Positions 4,762-23,213 of a stretch of DNA of 32,000 nucleotides are shown here, piece after piece (the stretch's first letter is position 1; each line of letters opens with the position of its first letter). The notes below the pieces were generated by a model. The model was not told where the DNA came from and ran no database searches. It saw only the letters and a program-made list of their open reading frames with translations. This DNA is from Delftia acidovorans NBRC 14950 (GTDB taxonomy: Bacteria; Pseudomonadota; Gammaproteobacteria; Burkholderiales; Burkholderiaceae_C), in NCBI RefSeq assembly GCF_001598795.1, contig NZ_BCZP01000017.1, positions 30,001 through 62,000 on the forward strand, written 5' to 3'. The position numbers were made by a program, and so were the translations under genes.

Positions 4762-4784
4762 ACACCGGACAGGAGCATTCCACC

Positions 4785-6017: not shown

Positions 6018-6038
6018 TAGCCACCCGCGCATGCATCC

Positions 6039-7775: not shown

Positions 7776-7777
7776 TT

Positions 7778-8191
7778 CTAGGTCCCGGCAACGGCTGGCG
7801 TGTTGGCGATATCGCGCCAACCATGGGCAATCGGAGCCAGCACATCCTGCGCGCTTTGCAGCAGCGCCGCGTCGTTGCGCAGATTGGCCAGCGTCAGCTG
7901 GGTAATGCTGTAGTCGTAGACGGAAATCAGGTTCTGGGCCAGTTCGCCACCTTCATCGGGATTGACGGAGGCCTTCAGGCCTTCTTCCAGAATGCGAACG
8001 GCCTTGCCGATCTGCACTCCCTTCTCACCGATGTCGCCACGCTGCAGGGCTCCCTTGGCCGCGTTCAGCGATTTTTCAAGCGCGTCGAACAGCAGCTGGA
8101 TCAGCTGGTGGGGCGATGCGCCGTCCACGGAGGACTGGACGCCGACCTGGGCGTAGGCACTTGCAGCACGGCGGTTGAGCGATGTGTACAT
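7778..8191 (-). CDS. fliS: Flagellin-specific chaperone FliS
   Basis: Starts at ATG 8191, preceded by AAGGAAACGAAC on the minus strand. The sequence MYTSLNRRAASAYAQVGVQSSVDGASPHQLIQLLFD...IGKAVRILEEGLKASV...LISVYDY fits the FliS pattern. Confidence 0.9.
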   Translation of the reverse strand: MYTSLNRRAASAYAQVGVQSSVDGASPHQLIQLLFDALEKSLNAAKGALQRGDIGEKGVQIGKAVRILEEGLKASVNPDEGGELAQNLISVYDYSITQLTLANLRNDAALLQSAQDVLAPIAHGWRDIANTPAVAGT

Positions 8192-8291
8192 GTTCGTTTC
8201 CTTGATGTCTTGTTCTTCGGCTGCAATGCTCAAAAATGTAGAGGCATCGAGCATTGGTTACAGAAAACACGTCCGCCGCTCCGCCCTGCCA

Positions 8292-9707
8292 TCATTTATT
8301 CCACTGTGCCACTTGCTGGTTCATGTAAGCGCTCAGCGAGGAATAGCTGCCCATCTTGGCATCCAGGGACGCATATTGCGCACGCAGGCGCTTTTCAAGC
8401 AAATCGGCCTGGTCATTGACCCGGTCCTGGGACTTGCCGTTGTCCTTCTTGAGCGCCTGCAGACTCTTGTTCTTGTTGTCGAAGGTTCCTTCGAACTCCA
8501 GGGCCTTCTTCGTGAAGTCCTTCATGCGCGCAGCAAGGCCTTGCGTATTGGGCTGCCCATCGGTGCCAGCCGAGGCGAACATCTTGCTCATGGACTCAGG
8601 GTCCTTCAGAGCTGCCTCGAACTTGGTCTTGTCACTGGCCGTCGTCCCGAAGGCCAGCTTGCCGCCCTTCTGGATCTGTATGCCCATGTCCGACAGGCGC
8701 TTGAGCGTGTCGGATCCGCCCACGACCGAGCCCGAGAGCACGCTGCGCAGGCTGTTGGTCATGCCCACCGTGGTGGCATCTCCCTGCAGCACGCCAGCCA
8801 CCTTGCTCTCGGCGTCATATTTGGTGGAGCTGCCCAGCGCATCGTTGAGCGCGTTGTAGGCATCCATGAAGGCCTGGATCTTCTTCTTCATGCCCTCCGT
8901 GTCCGAAGACACCGTCACCGTGACGGGCGCTGTGGTCTGCTGGGTCACCGTGATATTGAGTCCAGGCAGGGTCTGCTTGAATTCGTTGGTTGTCGATTGC
9001 ACCGTGATGCCGTTGACATTGATCTCGGCGTTCTGGGCGTACTGCGCCACGGAACCCGTGGTGGCCTTGCCATTGAAGGCCAGGGCCGACAGGCTGGCAT
9101 CTCCACTGGAGCCGACCGTGAAGCCCGCATCCGCACCTGTGCTGCGCGAGCGCAGCACAAGGCGTTCGCCCTGGGCGTCCTTGAGCACCGAAGCCACCAC
9201 GCCGGCGCCCTTGCTGTTGATGGCCTGGACCACGTCCTCCAGCTTGGCGCCCGCCGCGATATCGATATCCAGGGGCGTTCCAGGATTGCTGAATTGGGTT
9301 CCGTCCGCGTTCCAGGAACCCATGGTGATGGTGAGCTTGCCCGCGCCGAACTGCGTGGCCGCAGGCATGATGCCGGTGGCCACCGATTGGCTGCGCGCCA
9401 GCTTGTCCACCGAGATCACCGAAGACCCCGGCAGTGCATTGGCGTCCGTCACCGAAACCGCCACGGCCGTATTGGTCGTGGCAGCATTGGTCAAACGCCA
9501 CGTATCGGCATTGGCCAGCGAAGTGGCCGCGTCCTGAAGCGTGGACATCAGGGACTTGATCTGCCCGAACGTGGATATCTTGGAATCCAGGACAGACGCT
9601 TTTTGCTGAAGCGGAACCAGTGACTGCTTTTGCAGGGCCACCAGTTTGGCGATCATTGTCTCGTCCAGGCCGCTGCCGCTGATGCCAGCTGAACTCAAGG
9701 TGGCCAT
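8292..9707 (-). CDS. fliD: Flagellar filament cap protein FliD
   Basis: The N terminus MATLSSAGISGSGLD is typical of FliD. AAAGGG sits 6 nt upstream of the ATG at 9707, while the track ATG at 9713 has no spacer. The C terminus reads AQYASLDAKMGSYSSLSAYMNQQV. Confidence 0.92.
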   Translation of the reverse strand: MATLSSAGISGSGLDETMIAKLVALQKQSLVPLQQKASVLDSKISTFGQIKSLMSTLQDAATSLANADTWRLTNAATTNTAVAVSVTDANALPGSSVISVDKLARSQSVATGIMPAATQFGAGKLTITMGSWNADGTQFSNPGTPLDIDIAAGAKLEDVVQAINSKGAGVVASVLKDAQGERLVLRSRSTGADAGFTVGSSGDASLSALAFNGKATTGSVAQYAQNAEINVNGITVQSTTNEFKQTLPGLNITVTQQTTAPVTVTVSSDTEGMKKKIQAFMDAYNALNDALGSSTKYDAESKVAGVLQGDATTVGMTNSLRSVLSGSVVGGSDTLKRLSDMGIQIQKGGKLAFGTTASDKTKFEAALKDPESMSKMFASAGTDGQPNTQGLAARMKDFTKKALEFEGTFDNKNKSLQALKKDNGKSQDRVNDQADLLEKRLRAQYASLDAKMGSYSSLSAYMNQQVAQWNK

Positions 9708-9805
9708 GACCATCCCTTTCTAAGTGCAGAACACCTCCGCGCCACAGCGCAGAACGCGTCCTTGCGAACACGCACACCAAATGCCCGAGGGCATTCCCCG
9801 GTATC

Positions 9806-9832
9806 TTATCGACCGGTTGTTCTGGAACCTGA
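9806..9832 (-). promoter_or_regulatory. Candidate FliA (sigma28) promoter for fliDST
   Basis: The minus strand reads TCAGGTTC-N11-GTCGATAA against the enteric consensus TAAAGTTT-N11-GCCGATAA. That is 5/8 in the -35 element (6/8 against the fliC2 variant TAAAGTTC) and 7/8 in the -10 element. It lies about 95 nt upstream of the fliD start. Confidence 0.5.
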
Positions 9833-9866
9833 GGCTTTTCTTGGCCGCGCGCCGCGCAGCCAGGCT

Positions 9867-9883
9867 CAAAAGCCCCGCGGGCT
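9867..9883 (-). terminator. Weak hairpin downstream of fliC1
   Basis: The minus strand reads AGCCC-GCG-GGGCT followed by TTTG, 6 nt after the fliC1 stop. The stem is only 5 bp. Confidence 0.3.
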
Positions 9884-9888
9884 CCCTC

Positions 9889-10767
9889 TTACTGGATCAG
9901 CTTGAGCACCGACTGGGGCAGCTGGTTGGCCTGGGCCACCATGGCTGTGCCAGCCTGCTGCAGGATCTGCGTGCGGCTAAGGTTCGCGGTTTCAGCGGCA
10001 AAGTCGGCGTCCATGATGCGCGAGCGTGCCGCCGATGTATTTTCAGCCGCCACCTGGAGGTTCGAGATCACGGCCTCAAAGCGATTCTGGGCAGCACCAA
10101 AAGTGGCGCGTGTATTGTTGATTTCGTCCAATGCCGTATCGATCGCGGCCATCGACAGGCGTGCGTCACCCGCAGTGCCGGTACCCGAACCGAGCAAGGA
10201 GCCCAGGGACCCGCCCAACGAAGGAGGCGTCGTTCCTGCATTGACTCCCAAACCACCCGGAGTGGAGCCTGTCAAATCCACTGCGGAAATCGTGATCTGA
10301 TTGTCAGGTCCGGTGTTGGCGCCCACCTGGAAGACTGTAGGACTAGAGCTATTCAGCAGGGGACGACCGTTGAAGCTTGTGCTTCCAACGATACGTGCAA
10401 TTTCCTGCGCCAGCTGCTGAAACTCTTTGTCCAGCGAGCCCCGATCGGTGGAGCCGTTGGTGTCGTTGGCAGCTTGAACAGCGAGTTCGCGCATGCGTTG
10501 CAGACTATCGCCGATCTTGCCCAGCGCGCCTTCGGCCGTCTGCGCCATGGAAATGCCGTCGTTGGCATTGCGCATGGCCACATTCATGCCTCGCACCTGA
10601 GCGTTCATGCGCTCGGCGATGGCCAGACCCGCCGCGTCGTCCTTTGCACTGTTGACACGCAGACCCGAAGACAGGCGCTGCATGGTCGTGCTCAGCGACG
10701 ACTGGGACGTGCTGAGATTGCGCTGGGCGTTAAGCGAAACAAGATTGGTGTTGATGATGGATGCCAT
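9889..10767 (-). CDS. fliC: Flagellin, short type (copy 1, 292 aa)
   Basis: The ATG at 10767 has AGGAG 6 nt upstream. The sequence reads [18 protein letters not shown]...[25 protein letters not shown]...[32 protein letters not shown]. The track start at 10818 is an upstream extension. Confidence 0.95.
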   Translation of the reverse strand: MASIINTNLVSLNAQRNLSTSQSSLSTTMQRLSSGLRVNSAKDDAAGLAIAERMNAQVRGMNVAMRNANDGISMAQTAEGALGKIGDSLQRMRELAVQAANDTNGSTDRGSLDKEFQQLAQEIARIVGSTSFNGRPLLNSSSPTVFQVGANTGPDNQITISAVDLTGSTPGGLGVNAGTTPPSLGGSLGSLLGSGTGTAGDARLSMAAIDTALDEINNTRATFGAAQNRFEAVISNLQVAAENTSAARSRIMDADFAAETANLSRTQILQQAGTAMVAQANQLPQSVLKLIQ

Positions 10768-10821
10768 GGGCAGCTCCTCGTTAGGCATGAACAATAGCCA
10801 ACCGTTCGACGACCCCAAGCC

Positions 10822-10847
10822 GCCAGAACGCCAGACAGCACGCCAGA
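10822..10847. repeat. Three direct copies of GCCAGA in the fliC1 leader/promoter region
   Basis: GCCAGA occurs at 10822-10827, 10830-10835 and 10842-10847 (TCTGGC on the coding strand of fliC1). Confidence 0.6.
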
Positions 10848-10975
10848 ACTTCCAGCCCTGCCTATCTGATGTGGACGATTGTGCGGAAAAGCCCCCTCAC
10901 CAAAGCGCCGATAAAGCCCATGATCCGGCGCCAATTCGCCCTTCGAACACCCTCTTGGCCAACCTTTTCGCCCAT

Positions 10976-11002
10976 AAAAAAACCCCAGGCAGATGCCTGG
11001 GG
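10976..11002 (-). terminator. Rho-independent terminator of fliC2
   Basis: On the minus strand: stem CCCCAGGC, loop ATCT, stem GCCTGGGG (11002-10983), followed by T7 (10982-10976). It lies about 50 nt after the fliC2 stop. Confidence 0.85.
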
Positions 11003-11054
11003 CTTGGAGAATTCCGGCCGCCTCCTGCTTGGGAAGGCCACCGGACTCGCACTA

Positions 11055-11906
11055 TCAGCGCAGCAGGGCCAGAACGCCTTGGGGCAGTTGGTTGGCCTGG
11101 GCCACCATCGCTGTACCGGCCTGCTGCAGGATCTGCGCACGGCTCAGGTTGGCTGTTTCCGATGCAAAGTCGGCATCCGTGATGCGGCTGCGGGCCGACG
11201 CGGTGTTTTCGGAAGCCACCTGCAGGTTGGAGATCACTGCATCGAAACGGTTCTGCGAGGCACCGAAGTCAGCGCGCTTGCCGTTGACGGCATCGATGGC
11301 GCTGTCCAGGGCAGTGACTGCCGTCAGGGCCGTGGCGGCCGTGGAACCCAGCGTTGCGCCGGCACCTGTACCCTGAGCCACGGTGCCCATGGCAGACGCC
11401 AGATCGGACGTGGTAATGGAGATCTGGTTGTCGCTTGCCGTGTTGGAGCCGATCTGGAACTGGAATGTGCCGGAATTGCCACCCGAACCCGTCAGCAGCT
11501 CCTGGCCGTTGAACTTGGTGTTCTTGATCACGCGGGCGTTTTCTTCGGCCAGCTGCTTGAATTCCTTGTCCATCGAGCCGCGGTCGGCCGTGCCGTTGGT
11601 GTCGTTGGCCGCCTGGACTGCCAGTTCACGCATACGCTGCAGGTTCTCACCGATCTTGCCCAGCGCGCCTTCTGCGGTCTGCGACAGAGAGATGCCGTCG
11701 TTGGCGTTGCGCACAGCCACGTTCATGCCGCGGACTTGGGCGTTCATGCGTTCGGCGATGGCCAGGCCAGCGGCATCGTCCTTGGCGCTGTTGACGCGCA
11801 GGCCGGAGGACAGGCGTTGCATGGTGGTGGACAGCGAGCTTTGCGAAGCACCCAGGTTGCGTTGGGCGTTCAGCGATTGCACGTTGGTGTTGATAGACAT
11901 GGCCAT
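11055..11906 (-). CDS. fliC: Flagellin, short type (copy 2, 283 aa)
   Basis: AGGAG 8 nt upstream of the ATG at 11906. The sequence reads [18 protein letters not shown]...[25 protein letters not shown]...[32 protein letters not shown]. Confidence 0.96.
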
Positions 11907-12403: not shown

Positions 12404-12628
12404 ATGCCCTCCATTGAACAATTCATCGAAAGCTTTCTGACCGCCGTGGACTTCCAGGAGGCCGTGGAAGTGACGCCAGAGACCGAACTCAAGCGCCTGC
12501 CCGAATGGGACTCGCTGGCCGCACTGGGCGTGATCGTCATGTTCGACGTCGATTTCGGCAAAACCATCACGGGCGACGATCTCAAGAACTGCGCGACCAT
12601 CAACGACCTCTACCAACTGCTGGGCTGA
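12404..12628 (+). CDS. Acyl carrier protein (stand-alone)
   Basis: 74 aa, with AGGAA at 12391-12395. It is small and acidic and carries a phosphopantetheine-attachment context LPEWDSLAALGVIVMFD. The track start at 12206 is an unsupported extension. Confidence 0.85.
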   Translation: MPSIEQFIESFLTAVDFQEAVEVTPETELKRLPEWDSLAALGVIVMFDVDFGKTITGDDLKNCATINDLYQLLG

Positions 12629-12633
12629 ACGAC

Positions 12634-13686
12634 ATGACGCTGTCCACCCTGCACAACGTGCGATTCGCGGGCATGGCCAGCTGCGTGCCACGGCAAGTCG
12701 TACACAACATCAACGACGTCCCCCCCCATCTGCGTTCGGAGCGTGAGCGCCTGGTGCGCAACATCGGCATACTGACACGCAGGGTCTGTCCGAGTTGGCA
12801 GTGCTTTTCGGACCTGGCGTTCGATGCCGCCGAAAAGCTGCTCACCGAGTTGCAATGGGCCCGCGAAGAGGTCGATGCACTGATCGTGGTCACCCAGTCG
12901 CCGGACTACCTGACCCCGGCCACGGCCATCATCTTGCAGGACCGCCTGGGACTGCCGCATGGCACCGTGGCCTTTGATGTCAACCTGGGTTGCTCCGGTT
13001 ATCCGTTCGCGGTGCAGATCCTGGGCTCCATGGTGGCCTCGGGCGTCGTCAAGAAGGGCTTGATCCTGCTGGGAGACCGGTCCAGCTACAAGCACAAGGA
13101 CTCGCTCAAGGACCCGCTGTTCTCCGATGCCGCCACGGCGACAGCGCTGGAATACCAGCCCGGAGCACCCCCCATGCATTTCGACCTGAACAGCGATGGC
13201 AGCGGACACAAGGCCATCATGGTCCCGGTAGGCGGGCATCGCCAGCCCTTTGAACTCGAACATGCGATTGCGCGCAAGGGTGAAGATGGCTTCTGGTACT
13301 CCAACCTGGACCTGGTGCTCGACGGCCCTGCCGTGCTGAGCTTTTCCACGCAGCGTGTCCCGCCCATGGTCGAGCGCCTGATGCAGTACTCCGGCAGGAA
13401 CAAGGAAGAGGTGGACTACTTCATCTTTCACCAGGCCAACCGCATGATCAACGAGACGATACGCAAGAAGCTCGGCCTGCCCGCCGAGAAAGTGCCGTCA
13501 TCCCTGCAGGAGTTCGGCAATACCAGCGGTGCTTCATTGCCGGTCACCATGACCACGCGCCTGCGCGATGCGCTGGCCGAGGGAAAAAAGCGGCTGTTGC
13601 TGTGCGGTTTCGGTGTGGGTCTTTCCTGGGGCGGAGCCATTGTGGAAGTGGAATCTGCCTGCTTTCCTGCACTGGTCGAGGCATGA
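12634..13686 (+). CDS. 3-oxoacyl-ACP synthase III (FabH/KAS III family)
   Basis: 350 aa from the ATG at 12634, 5 nt after the ACP stop. The catalytic triad contexts are VNLGCSGYPFA (Cys), YFIFHQANRMI (His) and EFGNTSGASLP (Asn). Confidence 0.9.
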   Translation: MTLSTLHNVRFAGMASCVPRQVVHNINDVPPHLRSERERLVRNIGILTRRVCPSWQCFSDLAFDAAEKLLTELQWAREEVDALIVVTQSPDYLTPATAIILQDRLGLPHGTVAFDVNLGCSGYPFAVQILGSMVASGVVKKGLILLGDRSSYKHKDSLKDPLFSDAATATALEYQPGAPPMHFDLNSDGSGHKAIMVPVGGHRQPFELEHAIARKGEDGFWYSNLDLVLDGPAVLSFSTQRVPPMVERLMQYSGRNKEEVDYFIFHQANRMINETIRKKLGLPAEKVPSSLQEFGNTSGASLPVTMTTRLRDALAEGKKRLLLCGFGVGLSWGGAIVEVESACFPALVEA

Positions 13687-14444
13687 TGGATCAGGATCCG
13701 TTCTCCCTGGCGGGGAAACGCATTCTGGTCACGGGGGCGTCTTCGGGCATAGGCCGGCAGGTCGCGCTGAGTTGCGCCGACATGGGAGCGCAACTGATCA
13801 TCACCGGACGGGACCCGCAACGCCTGCAAGCCACAGCCGATGAACTGCCCGGCAGCGGCCACTTGGCGGTGATTGCTGATCTTGCACAACCTGTCGATCT
13901 GGCTCGGCTGGTCGAGCAAACTGGCGTGATCAACGGTCTGGTGCATGCTGCCGGCATTTCCAGGCTGGTGCCTTTTCGCATGATCAGCCAGGCGCATCTG
14001 AGCGAGATGTTTGAACACAATACCTATGCTCCGATGATGCTGACCAAGGAGCTACTGGGCAAAAAGCGTGTGGTGGCCGGCGGCTCCATCGTGTTCATTT
14101 CTGCCCTGGCATCACACAGCGGGGCCCAGGCCACAGCAGCCTATGCCGCAAGCAAATCGGCCCTGCTGGGAGCCATGCGTTCACTGGCCATCGAAGTCGC
14201 CAAGCATGGCATACGTGCCAACTGCATCGCACCAGGTTACGTTCGCACCCCCATGCTGAACGGACTGAGCCAAGGCGGTGCCCAGATGGAGCGCCTGATT
14301 GAGCAGACACCGTTGGGCCTGGGCGATCCTCAGGATATAGCCTATGCCGCGGCCTTCCATCTCGCAGATGCCAGCCGCTGGATCACCGGCAACTACTTCA
14401 TCCTGGACGGAGGACTGAGTACCTCAATGGACATCTACGCATGA
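13683..14444 (+). CDS. Short-chain dehydrogenase/reductase, FabG-like (SDR 1)
   Basis: ATGA overlap with the KAS III stop. Motifs [11 protein letters not shown] and YAASK (YxxxK). 253 aa. Confidence 0.88.
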
Positions 14445-15181
14445 GCAGCGCGACCATCTCTCCCTTTTCCATGCAAGGAAAGACAGTGCTGGTCACAGGT
14501 GCCTCTTCAGGCCTGGGCAGGCACATCGCTATCACACTGGCGCGAAGAGGTGCTCGCTTGGTGATCACCGGGCGTGATGCGGACAGGCTGAGGCAATGCC
14601 ATGAAGCTCTGCAAGGCGAAGGCCATGTGCAGATCCTGGCCGACCTGACCCTGTCCAAGGACCGGGACCGCGTGGTCCAGGCCAGCATTGGCATCCATGG
14701 TCTGCTGCACTGCGCAGGACTGCATCAGGCAACCCCTGTCAATGCATTGACCGAAGAGCTCATGACGCGCATGTACCAGATCAATTTCCTGGCTCCTGTG
14801 ATGCTCACCCAGCACCTGCTGCAGGTCGGCGCCGTGGCGCAAAAAGGCTCCATCGTCTTCATGCTAGCCACCGCTGCGCACAGCGGCATGGAGGGACTAG
14901 GCCCTTATGCAGCCATGAAGGCCGGGCTGTGGGGTCTCATCAAATGCCTCGCACTGGAACAGGCTTCTCAGAAAATCCGCGTCAACGGTATCTCACCCGC
15001 AGTCATTGGCACGCCGCCTGCCGAGTCGGGCCAGCAGATCCTGGTGGCAGACAAGGCTCTCCATCCGCTGGGCCATGGCACGCCCGATGACGTTGCCCAT
15101 GCAGCCATCTACCTGCTGTCCGATGCCAGCCGTTGGGTGACAGGAACCAGCCTGATCCTCGATGGCGGAGCAGCGCACTGA
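14441..15181 (+). CDS. Short-chain dehydrogenase/reductase (SDR 2, paralogue of SDR 1)
   Basis: ATGA overlap with SDR 1. Motifs [11 protein letters not shown] and YAAMK. 246 aa. Confidence 0.88.
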
Positions 15182-15822
15182 TGAAAAGGGTCTACATCAT
15201 TGGTGCTGGTGGCTGGGGCCGGGAAGTCCTGGTCCAGATGTGTGATGCGGTCGAGCATGGACAGGACTGGAAGATCGCCGGCTTTCTGGATACACGGCCC
15301 CACATGCTCAACGGCATTGACTGCGGCGTGACCATCGTCGGAAGCCCCCTGACCCACATGCCGCAGCCGGACGAAGCATTCGTCTGCGCCATCGGCCTGC
15401 CACGCCCACGCCAGCAGTTTTCCCAGCCCATACTGGATAAAGGGGGTGAATTCATGCACGTACGCACCCCTTACAACACCGTAGGCTACCTGAGCGTGCG
15501 CGTGCATCTTGGTACAGGCTGCTTCTGGGCGCCACGCGTGCAAGTCAGCCCTGATGTCCACATCGGCGACTTTGCCAACATCCACAGCGGCACCGTGATA
15601 GGTCACGACGTGCATATCGGCAACTATGCGCAGATAGGCGCCATGACCTTCATCGGGGGAGGAGCGCAAATCGGCGACTATGCCATCGTGCATCCGCACG
15701 CCACGATCACGCCAGGCGTCAAAGTTGGCGAAGGCGCGACCGTGGGCGCCGGTTCTGTAGTGCTCAAAAACGTGCCCGCCGGCTCCACCGTGTTCGGCAA
15801 TCCTGCACGCGTGATCTTCTAA
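15181..15822 (+). CDS. Sugar N-acyl/acetyltransferase, PglD/NeuD/VioB-type left-handed beta-helix
   Basis: 213 aa from the ATG at 15181 (TGATG overlap with SDR 2). An N-terminal YIIGAGGWGREV Rossmann-like motif is followed by hexapeptide repeats: VHIGDFANIHSGTVIGHDVHIGNYAQIGAMTFIGGGAQIGDYAIV... Confidence 0.85.
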   Translation: MKRVYIIGAGGWGREVLVQMCDAVEHGQDWKIAGFLDTRPHMLNGIDCGVTIVGSPLTHMPQPDEAFVCAIGLPRPRQQFSQPILDKGGEFMHVRTPYNTVGYLSVRVHLGTGCFWAPRVQVSPDVHIGDFANIHSGTVIGHDVHIGNYAQIGAMTFIGGGAQIGDYAIVHPHATITPGVKVGEGATVGAGSVVLKNVPAGSTVFGNPARVIF

Positions 15823-15849
15823 AAACCCGAAGCCGACAGGAAATCTCTT

Positions 15850-16989
15850 ATGCGCTCGCGCATGCACCCAAAATATTATTTGTCTCAGGAAATCTTCGAG
15901 CGCGAACAGCAAAAGATCTTTCGCAAGGTGTGGCTGTTCGCAGGCCTTGTCTCCCTGTTGCCCAAGAACCATTCTTTCATCACACGCAAGATCGCGGGCA
16001 TTCCCGTAGTCATTCAAAATTTCAACGGAGAGTTGCGCGCTTTCGAGAACATCTGCCTGCACCGCAGCGCACCGTTGCAGCAAGGTTTCACGGGAACACG
16101 TCCGCTGGTGTGCGCTTATCATGCCTGGAGTTATGACAGCCAAGGCCAAGTGAAGAATATCCCGGATTGCGATGCAATCTATCGACTCGATGCCTGCGAA
16201 AGAAAATCCCTGAAATTACGGGAATTTTCTCTCAGGCAGATTGGCGGCCTGCTGTTCATCAATCTGTCATCCGACCCCATGAAGTTCGAGGAGCAGTTCT
16301 CTGCCCAATTCATTGAACTACTGCAAAGCAGTGCCGAATCCTATGACAGCGAAGTCATGATGACCACTTGGCATGCCAAATTCAACTGGAAGCTTGTCTA
16401 TGAGAATCTGCGCGACGTCAACCATGTGAAATACCTCCACGCCAAGAGTCTGGCCAAAGTTGCCAGCTTTCCATTCTCCGCAAAAGACGGAGCATCCATG
16501 GAGAAGATGGAGTTGGACTGCTCTCCAATCGGCCTGCGAAAGGATATGCGCACATTTAGCCATGGAGGAGCGGAAGGTGCGATCGAACCCATTCGCTGGG
16601 TTCCCTGGCTGGACAAGGTGGAGCGCTGGGGCGACACCAATGCCTATTTCAATTGGCTAACCTACCCCAATCTGCACATAGCCAGCGGAAATGGGGGCTA
16701 CTCCTTCACTATTGAACATCACGTGCCTGTGTCCCCGGGCGAGACCGATGTCGAGATTTTCTTCATTGCGGCCCGAAAAAAGGTGTCGTACGCCGATTCA
16801 GCGCAGGTGCTTTTGTCCCAAATGCACTACAGCAAGCAAGTCGTTGGAGAAGATATTGCCATTCTTGAAGCAGTACAGGCCGTCTTGCATGAAAAAGCGC
16901 CCCTTCCCACCCAGGGCGCTTACGAGTATGCCAATCGTCATATCGAGCGTTGGTACACCACCCTGATGGAGACAGACCATGAAATATAG
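15850..16989 (+). CDS. Rieske [2Fe-2S] non-haem iron oxygenase, alpha-subunit type
   Basis: AGGAAA 7 nt upstream. The Rieske motif is CLH-x16-CAYH (codons at about 16054-16122). The mononuclear iron motif D-x2-H-x4-H appears in ENLRDVNHVKYLH. 379 aa. Confidence 0.88.
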   Translation: MRSRMHPKYYLSQEIFEREQQKIFRKVWLFAGLVSLLPKNHSFITRKIAGIPVVIQNFNGELRAFENICLHRSAPLQQGFTGTRPLVCAYHAWSYDSQGQVKNIPDCDAIYRLDACERKSLKLREFSLRQIGGLLFINLSSDPMKFEEQFSAQFIELLQSSAESYDSEVMMTTWHAKFNWKLVYENLRDVNHVKYLHAKSLAKVASFPFSAKDGASMEKMELDCSPIGLRKDMRTFSHGGAEGAIEPIRWVPWLDKVERWGDTNAYFNWLTYPNLHIASGNGGYSFTIEHHVPVSPGETDVEIFFIAARKKVSYADSAQVLLSQMHYSKQVVGEDIAILEAVQAVLHEKAPLPTQGAYEYANRHIERWYTTLMETDHEI

Positions 16990-17605
16990 ATGGATTGTCG
17001 GCTGCGGTGACTTTTTAGATACCGCTTTTCATGCCTGGAAGCAATTCCGCCCCGATGAGCTGATTAAACGAGTCGAGGTCCGGCAAAATGCAGACTACGC
17101 CTTCGATTGCTCCGTGCTCGATACTCTAGACCCAGCTAAAGGTAGTGCCTTCATTGCGTTCAACGAGCGCTTTGGCAACTTTAAGCGCTTGGAGTTGATG
17201 CAGGCAGCCGTTGATCACGGGCTGAACCTGGAGCCGTTCATCAGTCCTATGGCCAACGTGGCCACCGATGTTGTCATCGGCCCCAACAGTTTCATCGGCC
17301 ACAACGCCTGCATTGGCCATGGCAGCCGAATAGACTTCAATACTGTCATCCACAACGGCGTCCAGATTGGCATCCGCAGCACCATCAACGCGTCCTGCTG
17401 GATTGAAAGCGGCGTGCAAGTGGGCGATAACGTAGAGATCGGTGCGCATGGCATTTTACGCATGGGGGCGATGATCAAGAAGGGAATCACAGTGGGGGAG
17501 GGCTGTGAGTTGGGTTGGCCCCGTCTTTATCATGAAGACATCCCCAGCAAAACGGTTTTTGATCTGAGATACGACGAACCAATATACGTTTACCCGGGCA
17601 CATAG
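16979..17605 (+). CDS. Atypical hexapeptide-repeat (LbH) transferase-like protein
   Basis: GGAGA 6 nt upstream, and an 11-nt overlap with the Rieske gene. The C-terminal hexapeptide repeats read VVIGPNSFIGHNACIGHGSRIDFNTVIHNGVQIGIRSTINASCWIESGVQVGDNVEIGAHG. The N terminus WIVGCGDF lacks the GxGGxG motif of LbH 1. Confidence 0.7.
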   Translation: MKYRWIVGCGDFLDTAFHAWKQFRPDELIKRVEVRQNADYAFDCSVLDTLDPAKGSAFIAFNERFGNFKRLELMQAAVDHGLNLEPFISPMANVATDVVIGPNSFIGHNACIGHGSRIDFNTVIHNGVQIGIRSTINASCWIESGVQVGDNVEIGAHGILRMGAMIKKGITVGEGCELGWPRLYHEDIPSKTVFDLRYDEPIYVYPGT

Positions 17606-17620
17606 AAATAGCTTCGCATC

Positions 17621-18841
17621 ATGAAGAAAAATCAAACCCACTCAGATATTCACACTTCCAAGCTGGAGGCAATATTTCTCGAATCAGCAACAGCACTGCG
17701 ATATAATCCACTGCTCGGCATTCCCCAGGACCTTTGCGACATCATTTCCCGGCAAGGTCCATCCGTACGGGTTTTTATTCTGGGCAGCAGAGGATTTTCG
17801 GAAGATATCATCCGAATCTCTCGCCAGGGAAAATTCGTTGTCGAGGCAGTCGTTGATGATTTTCTCTGCCAAAAGGAATCCACGCATCGTGGAATTCCAT
17901 TAATCTCCACCGAAGCCTTTCTTTCCAAAGCCTGCGGGCAGAGTGATGCGGTAGCCATCAACACCTGCGGCCACGACAAGCCGAAGTTCTTCTTCAACCA
18001 TGTGTGCCGTACCAATGGGATTCCACACTTGAGTTTTGAGCAATTCGTCAGAGCATTTGGCATCAGCGGTCTGCTCGATTTCCGGCTCGACGACTGGGGC
18101 CCATATATCGCAGACAACGTCGAAAGATACCAGCAACTGGCCCAGCGCCTGTCGGATGGTTATTCAGTACAAACACTTTATTCGATCCTGAACTACCGGC
18201 TTACCTGCGATCCAAGCCACTACTATGAAATCGAGCGCCCCTATTCAGCACTCTATTTCAGGTCTGGCCTGTTGAGCTTCGGAAAATCGGAAAAGATGGT
18301 GGACTGCGGAGCCTCTGTGGGCGAAGCGCTTATGGGTCTTGCCGAGGTCACCGACGGAGATTTCGCCCATAGCTGGCTGATCGAGCCTGATCGATTCAAC
18401 ATCCAGACGCTGCAGGCTTTGCGCCGCCGTTACGAAGGCTCGGCACTGGCCTCAAGAACCAGCATCCACGGTTGCGGCGTGGGCGAAACCCCATGCAGGG
18501 TTCCCTTCAAGCACGAAGGAGGCCATGGCAGCTCCATCCACGCGGCCGATTCAGCGTGCAGCGAGGAGGACATGATCGACGTGCGCCCGATAGATGAAAT
18601 CATTGACGATGCGCCCAGCTTCATCAAGATGGACGTGGAGGGTGCAGAACTGTCTGCCCTCAAGGGTGCCCGCCAGTCACTGAAGAACCATGCGCCCAAG
18701 CTGGCCATCTCCGCCTACCACCGGACATCCGATCTGCTGGAGATCACGGACTATGTCATGCAGCAGCAGCCCGGATACAAGATAGGACTGCGCCACCACA
18801 CCCATTTCCGCTGGGACACCTGCCTGTACTTCTATTCGTGA
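17621..18841 (+). CDS. FkbM-family SAM-dependent methyltransferase with an extra N-terminal domain of about 200 aa
   Basis: 406 aa. The C-terminal half has FkbM-type blocks MVDCGASVGEA and FIKMDVEGAELSALKGA. The N-terminal half (VRVFILGSRGFSEDII...VVEAVVDDF...GIPLIS) looks Rossmann-like. Confidence 0.8.
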   Translation: MKKNQTHSDIHTSKLEAIFLESATALRYNPLLGIPQDLCDIISRQGPSVRVFILGSRGFSEDIIRISRQGKFVVEAVVDDFLCQKESTHRGIPLISTEAFLSKACGQSDAVAINTCGHDKPKFFFNHVCRTNGIPHLSFEQFVRAFGISGLLDFRLDDWGPYIADNVERYQQLAQRLSDGYSVQTLYSILNYRLTCDPSHYYEIERPYSALYFRSGLLSFGKSEKMVDCGASVGEALMGLAEVTDGDFAHSWLIEPDRFNIQTLQALRRRYEGSALASRTSIHGCGVGETPCRVPFKHEGGHGSSIHAADSACSEEDMIDVRPIDEIIDDAPSFIKMDVEGAELSALKGARQSLKNHAPKLAISAYHRTSDLLEITDYVMQQQPGYKIGLRHHTHFRWDTCLYFYS

Positions 18842-18851
18842 TCAAGGCATT

Positions 18852-18871
18852 CATGCATGGTCACATGCATG
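18852..18871. terminator. Hairpin at the convergent junction (possible bidirectional terminator)
   Basis: Two copies of the self-complementary octamer CATGCATG (18852-18859 and 18864-18871) are separated by GTCA. They lie between the FkbM stop (18841) and the aminotransferase stop (18879). There is no U-tract. Confidence 0.3.
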
Positions 18872-18878
18872 TCCCGCT

Positions 18879-20096
18879 TCAATCAGCCAGCGTGACTGGG
18901 GCTGGCGCGCGCAAAGGTTGGCTTGGACTGGGAGGGCAGTTTCCCTGCAGGCTCTGGGTCACCACGTCGCACAGGCGCTGGCGCTGATCCCGTGTCATGT
19001 CCAGAAAAAACGGCAGGCCCAGCAGCGTCTCTCCCAGTTCACATGCATGGCGTATTTCCAACCGCAGGCACTGTGACTCCAGCACCGGCATCTGTTGCAA
19101 CAGCGGCTGATACCAACGGCGAGTTGCGATGCGGGCTGCCTGGCAGCCCGCCTCTAGTGCTGCGCGCGCGGCCTCCCCCGGCAGGCGTGTGCACAGCAGG
19201 GAAGGCGCCGCCAGGTGACCACCGCTACCCTGTGCTTGCCAGGACAAGCTGTGGCCACTGGCCTCATTCAATGCAGCGATCAGTTCGGCCTGTAACTCGC
19301 GCCTCTGCCTTGCGTGCTCGTCCCAGACTTGCAGCGAAGCCAAGCCGATGGCTGCGTGGTATTCGCTCATCTTGGCGTTACTGCCCATGGAGGCCAGCGT
19401 ACCGACCGGCAATCCTGCAGCGGGATTCAGGTTGATACCGAAATTGGAGAGCTGGCGCACCCTGGCAGCCAAATCCGGGCGCGTTGAAACAATAAGCCCG
19501 CCTTCGCCGGCCGGCAGGCTTTTCGTGGTGTGCAGACTGAAGACCAAGGTACCCTGCGCGCCTTGCAGCCACTGGCTTCCATAGGCAGCAGCTGCATCGA
19601 TGACTACGGGCAATCCGGTTTCCAATTCAAACTGCTGCCATGCCTGCATGTCATAGGGCATACCAAAAGTGGCGACGGGCAACACCGCATCGATGCGCAT
19701 CTGCTTGCAGGCCGCGTGTGCAATGGCAGGGGTCAGCATCCAGCTGGAAGGATCCACATCACCGATCACGGGCACGTGGCCTGCACGGATCACCGCAGTG
19801 GCAGTGGCCACGAAGGTAAAGGACGGCACCAGTACACGGGAACCTCGGGGCAGATCCAGCGCCTGCAGCACCAGCTCCAGCCCCAGAGTGGCATTGGCCA
19901 CCGTCGTCAGAGCATCACTGGGCACAGCAAATCGATGAGCGAACGCCGCCTCCAACTCCTGTACCAACGGGCCAAAGTTGGAATAGTGCCGTGCTGCATG
20001 CATGCGCTCCAACCAAGGCAACAAGGCCTTCGGCGCAGGCATGTCGGGCACCAGAAGCGGAATGGGATCCATGTTCGTGGGTCGATTGAGGTTCAT
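18879..20096 (-). CDS. DegT/DnrJ/EryC1/StrS-family PLP-dependent sugar aminotransferase
   Basis: 405 aa. The PLP-lysine context is FSLHTTKSLPAGEGG. The N-terminal part reads YSNFGPLVQELEAAFA. The ATG at 20096 overlaps the stop of the upstream GT gene (ATGA). An alternative start is Met9 at 20072. Confidence 0.88.
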   Translation of the reverse strand: MNLNRPTNMDPIPLLVPDMPAPKALLPWLERMHAARHYSNFGPLVQELEAAFAHRFAVPSDALTTVANATLGLELVLQALDLPRGSRVLVPSFTFVATATAVIRAGHVPVIGDVDPSSWMLTPAIAHAACKQMRIDAVLPVATFGMPYDMQAWQQFELETGLPVVIDAAAAYGSQWLQGAQGTLVFSLHTTKSLPAGEGGLIVSTRPDLAARVRQLSNFGINLNPAAGLPVGTLASMGSNAKMSEYHAAIGLASLQVWDEHARQRRELQAELIAALNEASGHSLSWQAQGSGGHLAAPSLLCTRLPGEAARAALEAGCQAARIATRRWYQPLLQQMPVLESQCLRLEIRHACELGETLLGLPFFLDMTRDQRQRLCDVVTQSLQGNCPPSPSQPLRAPAPVTLAD

Positions 20097-21745
20097 GCGA
20101 CAGCGTCCGCTTCGGCCAGCAGGGCGTCCAGATCAACGGCCGCACTCAAATTGCGGCGATCCCCGTTCAGCCAGTTGAGCCACATCAGACGGAAGGCCTT
20201 CTCCAGCTCGGCCGTCCGCTCGGGATAGTTCATCAGCACGCTGGCCTCCATGCTGGCGCGCGCGGTCAGTCGCTGTTGGCGCAGACGCTCGGGATCGTTC
20301 ATCAGCTGCAATGCGGCCTGCACATATTCCTGCTCGTTATTGGTGACCTCTCCACCGAAGCCCAGGCCGACAAGGGTTCGTGCCGTCGAGGCGTCAACAC
20401 CCCGCTCGGCATCCAGTGTCACGATGGTCAGCCCCATCCACAGGGCGTGCAACGTAGTGGTGCCACCGGAAACAGGTGATGTATCCAGCGCCACATCGGC
20501 GATATGCCCCAGTTCCATGAAGCGGTCCAGTGGCTGCTGATGCAGCACCGAGACACGATCCAACGGCATGCCAGCGTTTTGCACGCGTGGCAGCATATGG
20601 ATCTGGGCGGCCTCAGGCTCCTGCTCCTTGACCATGATGATCAGCCGTGCGTCCTGGCGCTCGTTCAGTATGCGCGCCCAGACGGACAGCATCTGGTCTG
20701 TAATCTTGGATGAACTATTGAGCGATATCAGCGTGGGATAGCCGTTGCGCAGCATGGGCGGCTCCTCACACAAGGGTGAGTATTCAGGTGGCGCATAGCT
20801 GGCCATGCAACTCAGTTGGAACAGTGCCTCCGAGTAGTAAGGAGCATGGCTGGGGGGAGCGATGCCGGCATCCACCAGACGGTAATCCATGGCCTTCATG
20901 CCCAGAGTGTGCATGTACCCAAGCCAGGTCACTTGCACTGGTGCCGCACGCCGGGCGAACACCTCCATCCGGTGGCCCAGGGTAAAGCCCGACAGGTCCA
21001 CGAGGATGTCGATGCCGTCAGCACGTATCTGGTCAACCAATTGCACCTCGGTCAGATCGGCAACCTCGCGCCAATTCGGCACCAACGCGCGCAACTGCGC
21101 AGTCACCCAATCGGGCTTGCCGCTGGAGTAGACATGGATTTCGACGTTCTCGGGATCATGGTGGGCCAGCACAGGACGCATGAAGAACGCCACCGAGTGC
21201 TCGCGAAAATCCGCCGTCACGTATCCGACCTTGAGACGCTTGCGCGGGTTGCGGTCGCGCCCTGGCAGCGGCGCTGACTTGCGCGTCAGCGGATCAGAAA
21301 AGCGCCTGCCCCAATCAGCGGCCACTTGCAGCGATCGCGCTGAATCGCTGCTGGTGTGCGAATGGATGTAGGCACGCATCATCCAATGCTGCCCATCGTT
21401 CTTTTTGTGCCGACAGGCCTCGTCAATGAGGTCGCAGGCCTGCTCGCGCTGGCCAGTGCTGAACAGCGCAAGGGCCAGCAGGCGCTGCGCATCAGGCATA
21501 CGAGGCTCCATCTCCAGGGCCGCCTGCAGGGCATCAACGGCCTTGTGCCAGATGGCCATGCGCACATAGACAAACCCTATGTGCAGCCACACATGGGCGT
21601 TACGCGGCTCCTGGACCACCAGTTGCGACAGTGCACCCAGCGCCTGTATGAACTGCATTTGCTCGACCATGGCGCGGACACGCGCAAGCTCCTGAGGGAT
21701 GCTGACCGGTGGCGAGGAAGTTTCGGCGAGTACGGAAGAAGGCAT
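20093..21745 (-). CDS. TPR-repeat protein with a C-terminal GT41 (SPINDLY/OGT-like) glycosyltransferase domain
   Basis: 550 aa. The N-terminal TPRs include AHVWLHIGFVYVRMAIWHKAVDALQAALEMEP... The C-terminal blocks are typical of OGT-like bacterial proteins: LKVGYVTADFREHSVAFFMRPVLAHHDPENVEIHVY and GIDILVDLSGFTLGHRMEVFARRAAPVQVTWLGY. Confidence 0.82.
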   Translation of the reverse strand: MPSSVLAETSSPPVSIPQELARVRAMVEQMQFIQALGALSQLVVQEPRNAHVWLHIGFVYVRMAIWHKAVDALQAALEMEPRMPDAQRLLALALFSTGQREQACDLIDEACRHKKNDGQHWMMRAYIHSHTSSDSARSLQVAADWGRRFSDPLTRKSAPLPGRDRNPRKRLKVGYVTADFREHSVAFFMRPVLAHHDPENVEIHVYSSGKPDWVTAQLRALVPNWREVADLTEVQLVDQIRADGIDILVDLSGFTLGHRMEVFARRAAPVQVTWLGYMHTLGMKAMDYRLVDAGIAPPSHAPYYSEALFQLSCMASYAPPEYSPLCEEPPMLRNGYPTLISLNSSSKITDQMLSVWARILNERQDARLIIMVKEQEPEAAQIHMLPRVQNAGMPLDRVSVLHQQPLDRFMELGHIADVALDTSPVSGGTTTLHALWMGLTIVTLDAERGVDASTARTLVGLGFGGEVTNNEQEYVQAALQLMNDPERLRQQRLTARASMEASVLMNYPERTAELEKAFRLMWLNWLNGDRRNLSAAVDLDALLAEADAVA

Positions 21746-22055: not shown

Positions 22056-23108
22056 TCAGGAATCCGAAGCCGGCATGGGGTGGCGCAGCCTCAGAGCCCG
22101 GGCCTCGTCCAGATTTCCGAGTTGCTCGTGCATCACGGCCAGATTGTGCGCCGCAAGATAGCTGCCCCGCCCCGCCACCCCGCCATGCGGGCCCGCATCC
22201 ACCTCTCCGATCTCCAGGCAGCGTTCCCAGGAAGCCTGAGCCATCGAAAGCCAGTGCTCAACCTGACCATCAAGCTTGGCAATGGCCGCATCCAGCAGGA
22301 CACCGCCCAGAGTGAAAAAGAAATCGGGCGAATCCTGCCATTTCGGCATCTGGGCCTGCGCCAGGGCTAAGCCCTCTTCATGGCGGCCCGCTTGCCCCAG
22401 GCAATAAAGGTGTCTGACGCACAGATCGTGCTCATAGCCACTCGACACTTCAAGTTGCTCCATCGCCACGCCATAGTGTGCGCACGCATTAGAGAAATCC
22501 CTGTTCAGTTCGAAGTCCACGCCCAGTTGGTAGTTGATATAGGCATCACGAGGATTTCTACTCAACTCCTGCAGAAGAAGACGCTGGTTTCTCCCCTGCT
22601 TGCGCGACATCTGCTCAGGCAGATATCCGTCATGCCGAATGACCAGCGGCACCAGCACACGTGGCAGGTCGGACGCGGGCTGTTCATGGACGACCCCTTG
22701 ATAACGCACCCCCCGTGGCAAAAGCCGGGTAATCCGCGAACGGCTCACCGCGCCGGTCACGCCCATTTCGTACAGGCTCTGGACGTCGGCAACCCCGAGT
22801 TGGCGCTCCATCGTCGGCAACCCTGCCAACCACGCGCCACCCTCAACCAGCCATTCATCGGCGTCGAGAACCAGGTTCCAGTTCGCATCCGCCAGATCGA
22901 GGGCCCGGTTGCGGGCAGCGGCGAAATCATCACACCACTCAAAGCGATGCACCTGCGCACCGCAGCTGCGGGCGATCTCCATCGTACGGTCCACGGAGCC
23001 CGTATCCAGCACCAGGACTTCGTCCACGAAGTCTTTGACGCTGTCAATGCAGCGGGCTATTGAGCGTTCTTCATCGCGCGCGATGATGACAAGAGCAGTC
23101 TGGGGCAT
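22056..23108 (-). CDS. Family 2 glycosyltransferase with C-terminal TPR repeats
   Basis: The GT-A signature reads ALVIIARDEERSIARCIDSV...VLVLDTGSVDRT...LVLDADEWL (DxD). The C-terminal TPR-like helices include YINYQLGVDFELNRDFSNACAHY and LAAHNLAVMHEQLGNLDEA. The start is uncertain. The domain boundary favours ATG 23108, which has no clear SD. The ORF remains open to the ATG at 23213. Confidence 0.8.
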   Translation of the reverse strand: MPQTALVIIARDEERSIARCIDSVKDFVDEVLVLDTGSVDRTMEIARSCGAQVHRFEWCDDFAAARNRALDLADANWNLVLDADEWLVEGGAWLAGLPTMERQLGVADVQSLYEMGVTGAVSRSRITRLLPRGVRYQGVVHEQPASDLPRVLVPLVIRHDGYLPEQMSRKQGRNQRLLLQELSRNPRDAYINYQLGVDFELNRDFSNACAHYGVAMEQLEVSSGYEHDLCVRHLYCLGQAGRHEEGLALAQAQMPKWQDSPDFFFTLGGVLLDAAIAKLDGQVEHWLSMAQASWERCLEIGEVDAGPHGGVAGRGSYLAAHNLAVMHEQLGNLDEARALRLRHPMPASDS

Positions 23109-23193
23109 ATGAATGGAAAAGAACGTCGGAGTCAGGCAAATGCTGGCTGCCTCCAGGCCTGCAAGCAGGCCGACCCGTCGATCGCGCAGGGGC

Positions 23194-23213
23194 ATCGACA
23201 TCGAAATCGACAT
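23194..23213. repeat. Direct repeat ATCGACAT-CGAA-ATCGACAT in the GT2/motA divergent region
   Basis: Two exact 8-mers at 23194-23201 and 23206-23213, spaced 12 bp centre to centre. Confidence 0.6.

Follow-up and report, generated by a model that had tools for sequence, protein, structure and literature searches.

The stretch of DNA analysed here (the window, 32,000 nucleotides (nt) in full) is the flagellar locus of Delftia acidovorans, and the genes in question are three that lie on its forward strand at 15850-18841 and encode a Rieske oxygenase, an atypical left-handed beta-helix (LbH) protein and an FkbM-family methyltransferase. In a homologue search all three proteins were 100% identical to D. 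acidovorans entries. A first-pass annotation, struck by the low G+C content (GC) of these genes, had taken them for a later, foreign insertion into an already accessory locus. We consider it highly probable that they are the last three cistrons of an eight-gene operon (12404-18841) in a flagellin glycosylation island, and that their low GC is mainly a property of the protein families and not the footprint of an insertion. The earlier view foundered because the same operon position recurs across Beta- and Gammaproteobacteria. The role of the three genes is likely to be the late tailoring of an N-acyl-viosamine-type flagellin sugar.

Operon structure and synteny of the cassette

The operon opens with a gene for a 74-residue acyl carrier protein (ACP; 12404-12628, + strand), which gives a weak NCBIfam ACP match, is called as a 74-residue gene in a second D. 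acidovorans locus (L081) and shows 62-100% identity at the syntenic position in related loci. It is followed on the same strand by a FabH-like 3-oxoacyl-ACP synthase III (KASIII; 12634-13686; PF08541 and PF08545) and by two short-chain dehydrogenases, both matching PF13561 and PF00106: SDR1 (13683-14444), which is 3-oxoacyl-ACP reductase-like and whose start overlaps the KASIII stop, and SDR2 (14441-15181). The fifth gene (15181-15822, +) encodes a canonical sugar N-acyltransferase of the NeuD/PglB/VioB family (PglD/VioB-like), with a TIGR03570 score of 173 bits against a cutoff of 160.8 and with PglD_N and Hexapep domains; inspection of its sequence shows a GAGGWG motif and the catalytic motif IGHD. 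The three genes at issue complete the series, all on the + strand: the Rieske non-heme iron oxygenase alpha subunit (15850-16989; 379 residues; PF00355 and PF00848), which comes without a beta subunit; the divergent LbH protein (16979-17605; 208 residues; hexapeptide repeats), whose gene shares its first 11 nt with the end of the Rieske gene; and, as the last gene, a two-domain FkbM-family methyltransferase (17621-18841; 406 residues; PF05050 and TIGR01444 at residues 226-386). From 12628 to 18841 consecutive genes either overlap or are separated by 1-27 nt. Scans for promoters and terminators across the operon returned sigma-70 and terminator-like sites at or below chance level, and the sigma-54 promoter pattern also stayed at chance (58 matches against 57 expected).

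Related loci were gathered in two ways. A profile scan with the Rieske alignment listed at least 80 loci, mostly with distant Rieske proteins, of which 10 were relevant; a second sample of 69 metagenome loci was fetched with LbH-specific peptide motifs, and the fractions given below for it count the loci with enough sequence. When the proteins of the window were searched against the listed loci by tblastn, the order ACP-KASIII-SDR-SDR-PglD-Rieske-LbH(-FkbM) was found in Pseudoxanthomonas, P. dryadis, Oxalicibacterium and Comamonas, and likewise in Xanthomonas cucurbitae, Acidovorax and Methylobacillus; a Xanthomonas oryzae locus (L086, below) shows it too. Among the matches listed, LbH lay downstream of Rieske in all 10 loci with a close Rieske protein. 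The metagenome loci agree: Rieske stood upstream of LbH on the same strand in 45/45 and directly next to it in 42/45, and the typical overlap between the ends of the tblastn matches is 7 nt. KASIII and ACP genes preceded LbH in 26/26 long loci and a PglD gene did so in 33/42. What follows LbH is less constant, being an orthologue of the long FkbM in 8/45 loci, a different FkbM-type enzyme in 21/45 and neither in 16/45. The Rieske and LbH genes are moreover duplicated as a pair in four loci (L004, L007, L118 and L134). The fixed unit is thus Rieske plus LbH, an obligate pairing, and the long FkbM is optional. The first-pass annotation had proposed to look for co-occurrence of the three genes elsewhere, and they do recur, as the 3' end of an eight-gene operon.

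Some loci carry a second, paralogous Rieske protein (32-41% identity), often with an LbH protein of its own (25-30%); these are L004 (14022-15757, - strand), L007 (8207-9951), L118, L134, L100 and L105. In some of them the paralogous Rieske gene again stands directly after a PglD-like gene.

The cassette is also found in another setting. Two metagenome-assembled genomes (MAGs) from Myxococcota/Deltaproteobacteria hold a reduced set of KASIII, Rieske, LbH, FkbM and ACP genes (L008, 1-6717; L009, 960-7849), next to a Wzx-like flippase and a family 2 glycosyltransferase (GT2), with a PMT_2 protein in L008. Consequently, the module is not restricted to flagellar loci. By tblastn, neither of these two loci showed a PglD-type paralogue. 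In Methylobacillus arboreus (L156, 3723-21143) the cassette has no flagellar genes within 10 kb; thiS, thiG and mltA lie upstream, and GT2 genes, a CTP_transf_3 gene, a 2-hydroxyacid dehydrogenase gene, an SDR gene and an MptE-like gene lie downstream.

The same genera turn up among the listed homologues of each of the Rieske, LbH and FkbM proteins, namely Xanthomonas, Methylobacillus, Oxalicibacterium/Massilia, Variovorax/Acidovorax, Pseudomonas and Delftia. Outside Delftia, the nearest relative is Methylobacillus for KASIII (81%), PglD (76%) and Rieske (70%).

GC trough, strain mosaicism and the insertion question

The low-GC stretch itself is real. The hand counts of 60-nt rows made in the first-pass annotation were all five exact (30, 28, 38, 39 and 41 G+C), and the computed sliding profile gives a trough at 15801-18841 (GC 0.53). 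The three genes together (15850-18841; 2,992 nt) have a GC of 0.530, the 4th lowest rank among 581 sliding windows; the minimum, 0.529, belongs to the window that starts at 15801, and the mean is 0.624 with a standard deviation of 0.038. With 500-nt windows, GC is 0.48-0.55 over 16001-18500, about 0.59-0.63 in the other parts of the island and 0.64-0.73 in the flagellar core. Gene by gene, GC is 0.518 for Rieske, 0.528 for LbH and 0.541 for FkbM, and the GC of third codon positions (GC3) is 0.632, 0.646 and 0.636, against 0.69-0.80 in the other island genes and 0.82-0.90 in core genes. The difference is most marked at the other two codon positions: the three genes have a GC1 of 0.55-0.57 and a GC2 of 0.38-0.42, and the adjacent enzyme genes about 0.63-0.69 and 0.43-0.50, respectively (the short ACP gene lies below these neighbours). 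Since the trough lies mainly in codon positions 1 and 2, it reflects protein composition.

We then compared the observed GC with the value expected when the amino acids of each protein are encoded with the island's own synonymous codon usage. Expected and observed values were 0.547 and 0.518 for Rieske (z -3.7), 0.554 and 0.528 for LbH (z -2.3) and 0.562 and 0.541 for FkbM (z -2.7). The three genes lie roughly 8 GC points below the island, and amino-acid composition thus accounts for about 6 of these, or roughly three quarters. What is left at the codon level does not set them apart, because the DegT-family aminotransferase gene that flanks the trough on the outside (18879-20096, - strand) deviates as much (expected 0.645, observed 0.617, z -3.6). 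Of the compositional anomaly expected by the first-pass annotation, the raw trough therefore stands, whereas the codon-level trough is small. The same tendency is seen in other hosts. Rieske orthologues lie below their operon neighbours in GC in every host examined, by about 1-5 points in Pseudoxanthomonas, P. dryadis, Oxalicibacterium, Pseudacidovorax, X. cucurbitae, Methylobacillus and the Myxococcota MAGs, and by about 5-13 points in the Comamonadaceae loci (the window, L081, L083, L005 and L007). Low GC is thus mainly a property of these protein families, through low GC1 and GC2, and is accentuated in Comamonadaceae.

Comparison of strains shows homologous replacement of blocks within the locus. 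Against D. acidovorans L081, a divergent block with 65-93% nt identity extends from about 13700 to about 19500; its flanks are 98-100% identical, and identity over everything outside it is 97-100%. Within the block, amino-acid identity is 74% for SDR1, 65% for SDR2, 87% for PglD, 86% for Rieske, 79% for LbH, 84% for FkbM and 91% for DegT, so that between D. acidovorans strains no gene diverges more than SDR2. In the comparison with the metagenome contig L087, divergence is confined to about 17500-19500, that is, to FkbM and the 3' part of the DegT gene, with flanks 97-100% identical. The left breakpoint (about 13.7 kb) thus falls at SDR1, the middle one (about 17.5 kb) between LbH and FkbM and the right one (about 19.5 kb) inside DegT, and none of them coincides with an edge of the trough. 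Other Delftia alleles are more distant still, with Rieske proteins only 61-74% identical and with different architectures. The locus behaves as a hypervariable surface-glycan locus, not as an island with one extra module.

Two of these Delftia alleles have further peculiarities. One (L085, 11190-13454) has the order PglD, Rieske, class I methyltransferase, a 160-residue open reading frame (ORF), LbH, and is without the long FkbM. The other (L083) has an extra 934-residue protein with tetratricopeptide repeats and a GT41 glycosyltransferase domain (TPR-GT41) between fliC and ACP (3391-6195) and a 641-residue MptE/Maf-like gene (13041-14966); its LbH gene (11130-11756) is an intact ORF of 208 codons, in place of which the source gene caller had called an 80-residue ORF on the opposite strand.

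According to the first-pass annotation, the Rieske, LbH and FkbM genes entered together after the island existed, and the trough is the unameliorated footprint of that event. The raw GC of 15850-18841 is essentially the minimum of the window, GC3 is 0.63-0.65 against 0.69-0.80 upstream, and similar or deeper troughs cover the same genes in the Comamonadaceae loci L083, L007 and L005, all of which would suit such an entry. We nevertheless regard it as very improbable and a foreign three-gene insertion as largely refuted. The three genes hold the same position in a syntenic operon in distant genera, the trough edges carry no scars, the recombination breakpoints lie elsewhere, one of them even cutting through the supposed module between LbH and FkbM, and the GC deficit is about three quarters amino-acid composition, with a codon deviation equal to that of the DegT flank; for these reasons the genes are not a later foreign insert. 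In addition, FkbM is dispensable or replaceable while Rieske and LbH are fixed, and KASIII and PglD have the same nearest relative as Rieske, so that neither a separate taxonomic neighbourhood nor a sizeable codon-level trough, on which the insertion reading depended, was found. As to the scars, direct or inverted repeats flanking the trough edges did not exceed chance (the matches were short or came from hexapeptide similarity between PglD and LbH), no insertion sequence (IS) or integrase was found at the borders as a mark of mobility, and no tRNA gene turned up at the trough edges, although no tRNA scan was made. Nor did we find, among close strains, presence/absence or recombination of the three genes as one unit.

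An intermediate possibility is that the cassette is old and that its Rieske-to-FkbM part was replaced in Comamonadaceae from lower-GC Betaproteobacteria (Methylophilaceae/Oxalobacteraceae), so that the trough is partly a donor signature. The GC of the three genes (0.52-0.54) matches that of their Methylobacillus and Oxalicibacterium orthologues (0.53-0.57), whereas the upstream genes exceed theirs; block replacement between strains, including that of the FkbM-DegT block, is observed; and Delftia holds at least four very different alleles or architectures. Yet KASIII to PglD are also nearest to Methylobacillus and have island-level GC, the leftover codon-level deviation is small, and homologue searches gave no donor above 64% identity for LbH or FkbM. 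We judge a replacement of this kind rather unlikely, though far less so than an insertion of the three genes.

Several observations weigh against reading the three genes simply as native cistrons of low-GC families. A modest synonymous deficit is left (GC3 about 0.64, as compared with 0.69-0.80 in the genes upstream), and Comamonadaceae alleles show a deeper trough (GC 0.47-0.51 in L083), which leaves a lineage-specific excess; a lower-GC donor lineage may have made some contribution to the trough. For LbH and FkbM, unlike KASIII to Rieske, no relative outside Delftia clearly stands out as the closest (all 51-64%). The catalytic histidine of PglD/PerB/LpxD-type enzymes is absent from the LbH family and so, across 36 homologues, is any invariant histidine at all.

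The Rieske-LbH pair and the extended FkbM enzyme

All the metal-binding motifs that the first-pass annotation had read in the Rieske protein are present. The [2Fe-2S] motif (C69-L-H71, 16 residues, C88-A-Y-H91) and the iron-site motif (D189-x2-H192-x4-H197) are invariant in 15 homologues, and the scores are 61 bits for PF00355 (cutoff 20.3) and 57 bits for PF00848 (cutoff 24.9). The putative carboxylate ligand of the iron is E334 or D335, which align with the 'DD' of 7yls. The closest solved relatives are 7yls, 9o71, Stc2 (3vca), CntA (6y9c) and a GbcA-like demethylase (4qup), with E values of about 1e-24 and about 100 bits, mainly over the first 200 residues. Like these alpha-only monooxygenases, the Delftia protein has the two-domain fold and the metal motifs and no beta subunit; unlike the catabolic CntA, GbcA and Stc2, it stands in a sugar-tailoring context and has no dedicated reductase gene beside it. 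A quaternary-amine monooxygenase of the GbcA/CntA/Stc2 type was considered and rejected, as the NF058607 GbcA model scored 99.5 bits against a cutoff of 670, over the N-terminal 200 residues only. The protein belongs to no NCBIfam equivalog, its scores lying far below every cutoff. By its sequence it is assigned to an uncharacterised subfamily of alpha-only enzymes, whose members show 59-86% identity among about 120 clusters listed. No ferredoxin or reductase gene was found in the window, as had been noted before, nor within 10 kb in six related loci, including those of Methylobacillus, P. dryadis, X. oryzae and Delftia.

The LbH protein was also correctly described as atypical: at its N-terminus (MKYRWIVGCGDFLD) GCGDFL takes the place of the GAGGWG of the PglD/VioB-like paralogue (15181-15822), so that the GxGGxG motif is missing. 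In the predicted structure (mean pLDDT confidence score 76), residues 2-79 alternate strands and helices as in an alpha/beta domain, and a left-handed beta-helix follows. Membership in the canonical PglD group was rejected, as the TIGR03570 score of 78.5 bits is under the cutoff of 160.8 reached by the paralogue and the catalytic histidine is absent. An hhalign comparison with the family of the PglD paralogue gave 98.8% probability over residues 50-192. Among PDB entries the sequence is closest to LpxD, PerB, the PglB acetyltransferase domain and QdtC; the best Foldseek match of the model is the PglB acetyltransferase 4m99, which is not significant (E 0.74). Sequence and model together identify LbH as a diverged member of the NeuD/PglD lineage. 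The IGHD of the paralogue aligns with IGIRST in LbH, and the column is variable across the 36 homologues. Because the catalytic histidine is missing, acyltransferase activity of LbH is not assured. Some LbH N-acyltransferases, for example QdtC and WlbB, act without a catalytic base. Motifs that are invariant in the family are FDERFGNFKR, SCWxE, CELGWP and DxRY.

These features, together with the linkage, bear on what LbH does. We tentatively propose that Rieske and the histidine-less LbH form an obligate coupled pair which acts on the N-acyl group of a nucleoside diphosphate (NDP) amino sugar or on its acyl-ACP precursor, with LbH serving as a base-independent acyltransferase or as a substrate presenter. 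A stricter version would make LbH a non-catalytic, trimeric partner of a trimeric alpha-only Rieske enzyme, for example presenting the NDP-sugar or acyl-ACP. Adjacency with overlap in 42/45 loci, duplication as a pair and the loss of both the catalytic histidine and GxGGxG would fit a partner of this kind, as would the fact that the folds of both proteins are typically trimeric. The conserved, pocket-like motifs, however, fit catalysis equally well, and in the Myxococcota loci L008 and L009 LbH is the sole LbH-type acyltransferase candidate beside KASIII and ACP. A purely non-catalytic LbH thus seems quite unlikely to us. For the proposed coupled pair an analogy exists in CMP-Neu5Ac hydroxylase (CMAH), a Rieske-cluster enzyme whose substrate is a nucleotide-activated sugar, on which it hydroxylates the N-acyl group. 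The likeness is one of analogy only: the same kind of reaction is proposed, but the catalytic domain is different and homology is limited to the Rieske domain. To our knowledge, no Rieske oxygenase of the Ring_hydroxyl_A type has been described for the N-acyl groups of NDP-amino sugars or for acyl-ACP. If the proposal is true, the Rieske-LbH pair would supply the missing chemistry of flagellin glycans that are so far undefined in P. aeruginosa PAK, Xanthomonas and Delftia.

The FkbM domain occupies residues 228-386 of 406 by PF05050 (43.6 against a cutoff of 22.7; TIGR01444, 60.5 against 37.7), and the 406-residue architecture is kept in more than 100 clusters. The model (pLDDT 92) matches PDB 2PY6 and other S-adenosylmethionine (SAM)-dependent methyltransferases. 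With 2PY6, from Methylobacillus flagellatus KT, the match covers both domains (53% identity; TM scores 0.89 and 0.96 over 394 columns), and it bears out, with the predicted structure, the extra N-terminal alpha/beta domain noted in the first-pass annotation. 2PY6 is a structural-genomics FkbM methyltransferase to which no function was assigned; the Delftia context suggests one, and the cassette gives this orphan structure a functional setting. The supposed resemblance of the N-terminal domain to that of PglD/NeuD is weakly supported. Its strands (50-54, 73-78, 92-95 and 110-114, with helices between) follow a strand-helix order similar to that of PglD_N, and the two have the pattern xVVDDF...G.P(I/L)IST in common, but profile matches stay below threshold (PglD_N, PF17836, over about 49-140, E 0.083; hhalign of FkbM 49-97 with PglD 2-55, a weak 4.5% probability). 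Such a pattern would suit a methyltransferase with a bound NDP-sugar.

Known flagellin glycosylation systems and a proposed pathway

The Delftia locus has the gene content and order of a GigX/PAK-type cassette, together with an aminotransferase and glycosyltransferases, inside a flagellar cluster. The aminotransferase is the DegT/VioA-like protein whose gene converges on the operon (PF01041, E 7e-64). Beyond it lie, also on the - strand, a gene for a TPR-GT41 protein (20093-21745; PF13844 and TPR), which is the candidate flagellin glycosyltransferase and is 99.6% identical between D. acidovorans strains, and a GT2 gene (22056-23213; PF00535), whose product has C-terminal TPR matches below the Pfam cut-offs. 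The latter also shows a below-cutoff match (E 6e-24) to the SunS family of peptide S-glycosyltransferases. From its sequence it may be a protein-directed glycosyltransferase. The presumed targets are the products of two tandem flagellin genes on the - strand, fliC1 (9889-10767) and fliC2 (11055-11906), recognised by their translations and by the Flagellin_N and Flagellin_C domains of the equivalent genes in L081.

That a Rieske oxygenase lies outside the described flagellin-glycan pathways, as the first-pass annotation had stated, is true of P. syringae viosamine and of pseudaminic and legionaminic acid, but the P. aeruginosa PAK/M18 island and the X. oryzae locus at the gigX position both contain one. 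In P. aeruginosa M18, island MGI-IV, for which the island table lists 100% P. aeruginosa PAK by BLASTN, has consecutive genes for an SDR, an acetyltransferase (210 residues), a ring-hydroxylating dioxygenase large subunit (376 residues) and an isoleucine-patch acetyltransferase (206 residues) (PMC3189399); the a-type PAK island, orfA-orfN, also has an aminotransferase, an ACP and a KASIII (PMC3927599, Table 1). Matched by gene lists, not by sequence alignment, this run is the PglD-Rieske-LbH core. It differs in what follows LbH: PAK has two hypothetical genes, a CMP-KDO-synthetase-like gene, another methyltransferase gene and a homocitrate-synthase-like gene, not the long FkbM. In P. dryadis the full cassette lies between flgL and fliC, ahead of a gene for a 1173-residue double GT2, the size of P. 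syringae VioT (1,173 residues), which has been paired with PAK OrfN (PMC3927599). In the literature we found no reaction assigned to this Rieske protein, and nothing specific on Rieske or dioxygenase proteins in flagellin glycosylation beyond the M18 paper.

A close parallel is described in X. oryzae, where gigX1-gigX10 are flagellin-glycosylation genes under RpoN2/FleQ control, in a flagellar cluster centred on rpoN2-fleQ (PMC8657755). In the X. oryzae locus L086 we find, directly after rpoN2-fleQ, genes for DegT, ACP, KASIII, SDR, SDR, PglD, Rieske (65%) and LbH (59%), and later one for a 1165-residue glycosyltransferase. L086 matches the published position of gigX1-10, and a gene-by-gene equivalence is suggested by gene order. 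According to a 2018 abstract by Yu et al., gigX7 encodes a ring-hydroxylating dioxygenase, gigX8 a hypothetical protein and gigX9 a methyltransferase, and deletion of each reportedly altered flagellin mobility or glycosylation. At the FkbM place, the ninth of the ten-gene island, L086 (X. oryzae CP143562) has an IS1595-family transposase (10700-11665), and tblastn found no FkbM remnant at this site. X. oryzae also has a long FkbM (P0135), 53% identical to that of Delftia. The two loci differ in that the aminotransferase is first in the operon in X. oryzae and convergent and downstream in Delftia, and in that the glycosyltransferase of X. oryzae is a double GT2 of about 1170 residues, whereas Delftia has TPR-GT41 and GT2 enzymes. 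The Delftia locus is thus a strongly mosaic and polymorphic new example of a GigX/PAK-type cassette for which genetic descriptions exist in X. oryzae and P. aeruginosa. The narrower point of interest is the strict linkage of Rieske and LbH as a biochemically uncharacterised tailoring unit of acyl-amino-sugar pathways, which extends to polysaccharide clusters of Myxococcota.

A further relative, with a known product, is the P. syringae viosamine island (vioA, vioB, vioS, vioR, acp, vioM and vioT), all seven genes of which have PAK counterparts and which yields N-(3-hydroxybutanoyl)-2-O-methyl-viosamine on rhamnose-primed flagellin (PMC3927599). P. syringae and Delftia have a common logic of aminotransferase, ACP, KASIII, reductase, VioB-type N-acyltransferase and methyltransferase. 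The P. syringae island is without a Rieske gene, a second LbH and a second SDR, and its O-methyltransferase, of 241 residues, is not of the FkbM type. Given these extra genes, the Delftia product is expected to carry additional oxidation or acylation.

By analogy with the P. syringae pathway, the aminotransferase would make an NDP-4-amino-4,6-dideoxyhexose, a viosamine-type sugar; ACP, KASIII and one or both SDRs would make a C4 3-oxo- or 3-hydroxybutyryl-ACP, with which the canonical PglD/VioB-like enzyme would N-acylate the sugar. The Rieske enzyme would then hydroxylate the acyl chain or the sugar, taking electrons from a reductase encoded elsewhere, and the translationally coupled LbH protein would acylate or otherwise process its product. 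FkbM could methylate the still nucleotide-bound intermediate, its N-domain being a putative nucleotide-sugar-binding domain, before the glycosyltransferases transfer the finished glycan onto flagellin (FliC). Both the substrates of Rieske, LbH and FkbM and the order of the steps are proposed here by analogy, and the specific chemistry given for these three steps is somewhat more likely to be wrong than right. Solving the Rieske-LbH reaction would help to define the flagellin glycan modifications of the PAK type and of Xanthomonas; flagellin glycans affect motility, recognition by phages and the immune system, and the specificity of plant pathogens.

The remainder of the window is made up of flagellar genes. 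To the left lie flgH-flgL, a 430-residue ORF and then fliT, fliS and fliD (- strand); to the right of the glycosyltransferase genes lie motAB, cheYZ and flhBAF. The fliT, fliS, fliD and flagellin genes (7476-11906) have a GC3 of 0.70-0.81, against 0.82-0.90 in the core, with fliC1 (0.70) below fliC2 (0.79); the compositionally atypical stretch therefore begins at about 7.4 kb, before the glycosylation genes. The 430-residue ORF (6039-7331), in the interval between flgL and fliT, has a core-like GC3 of 0.87, no NCBIfam match and a weak HDOD match, and a 39%-identical copy of it adjoins a GT41 gene in Pseudacidovorax (L004).

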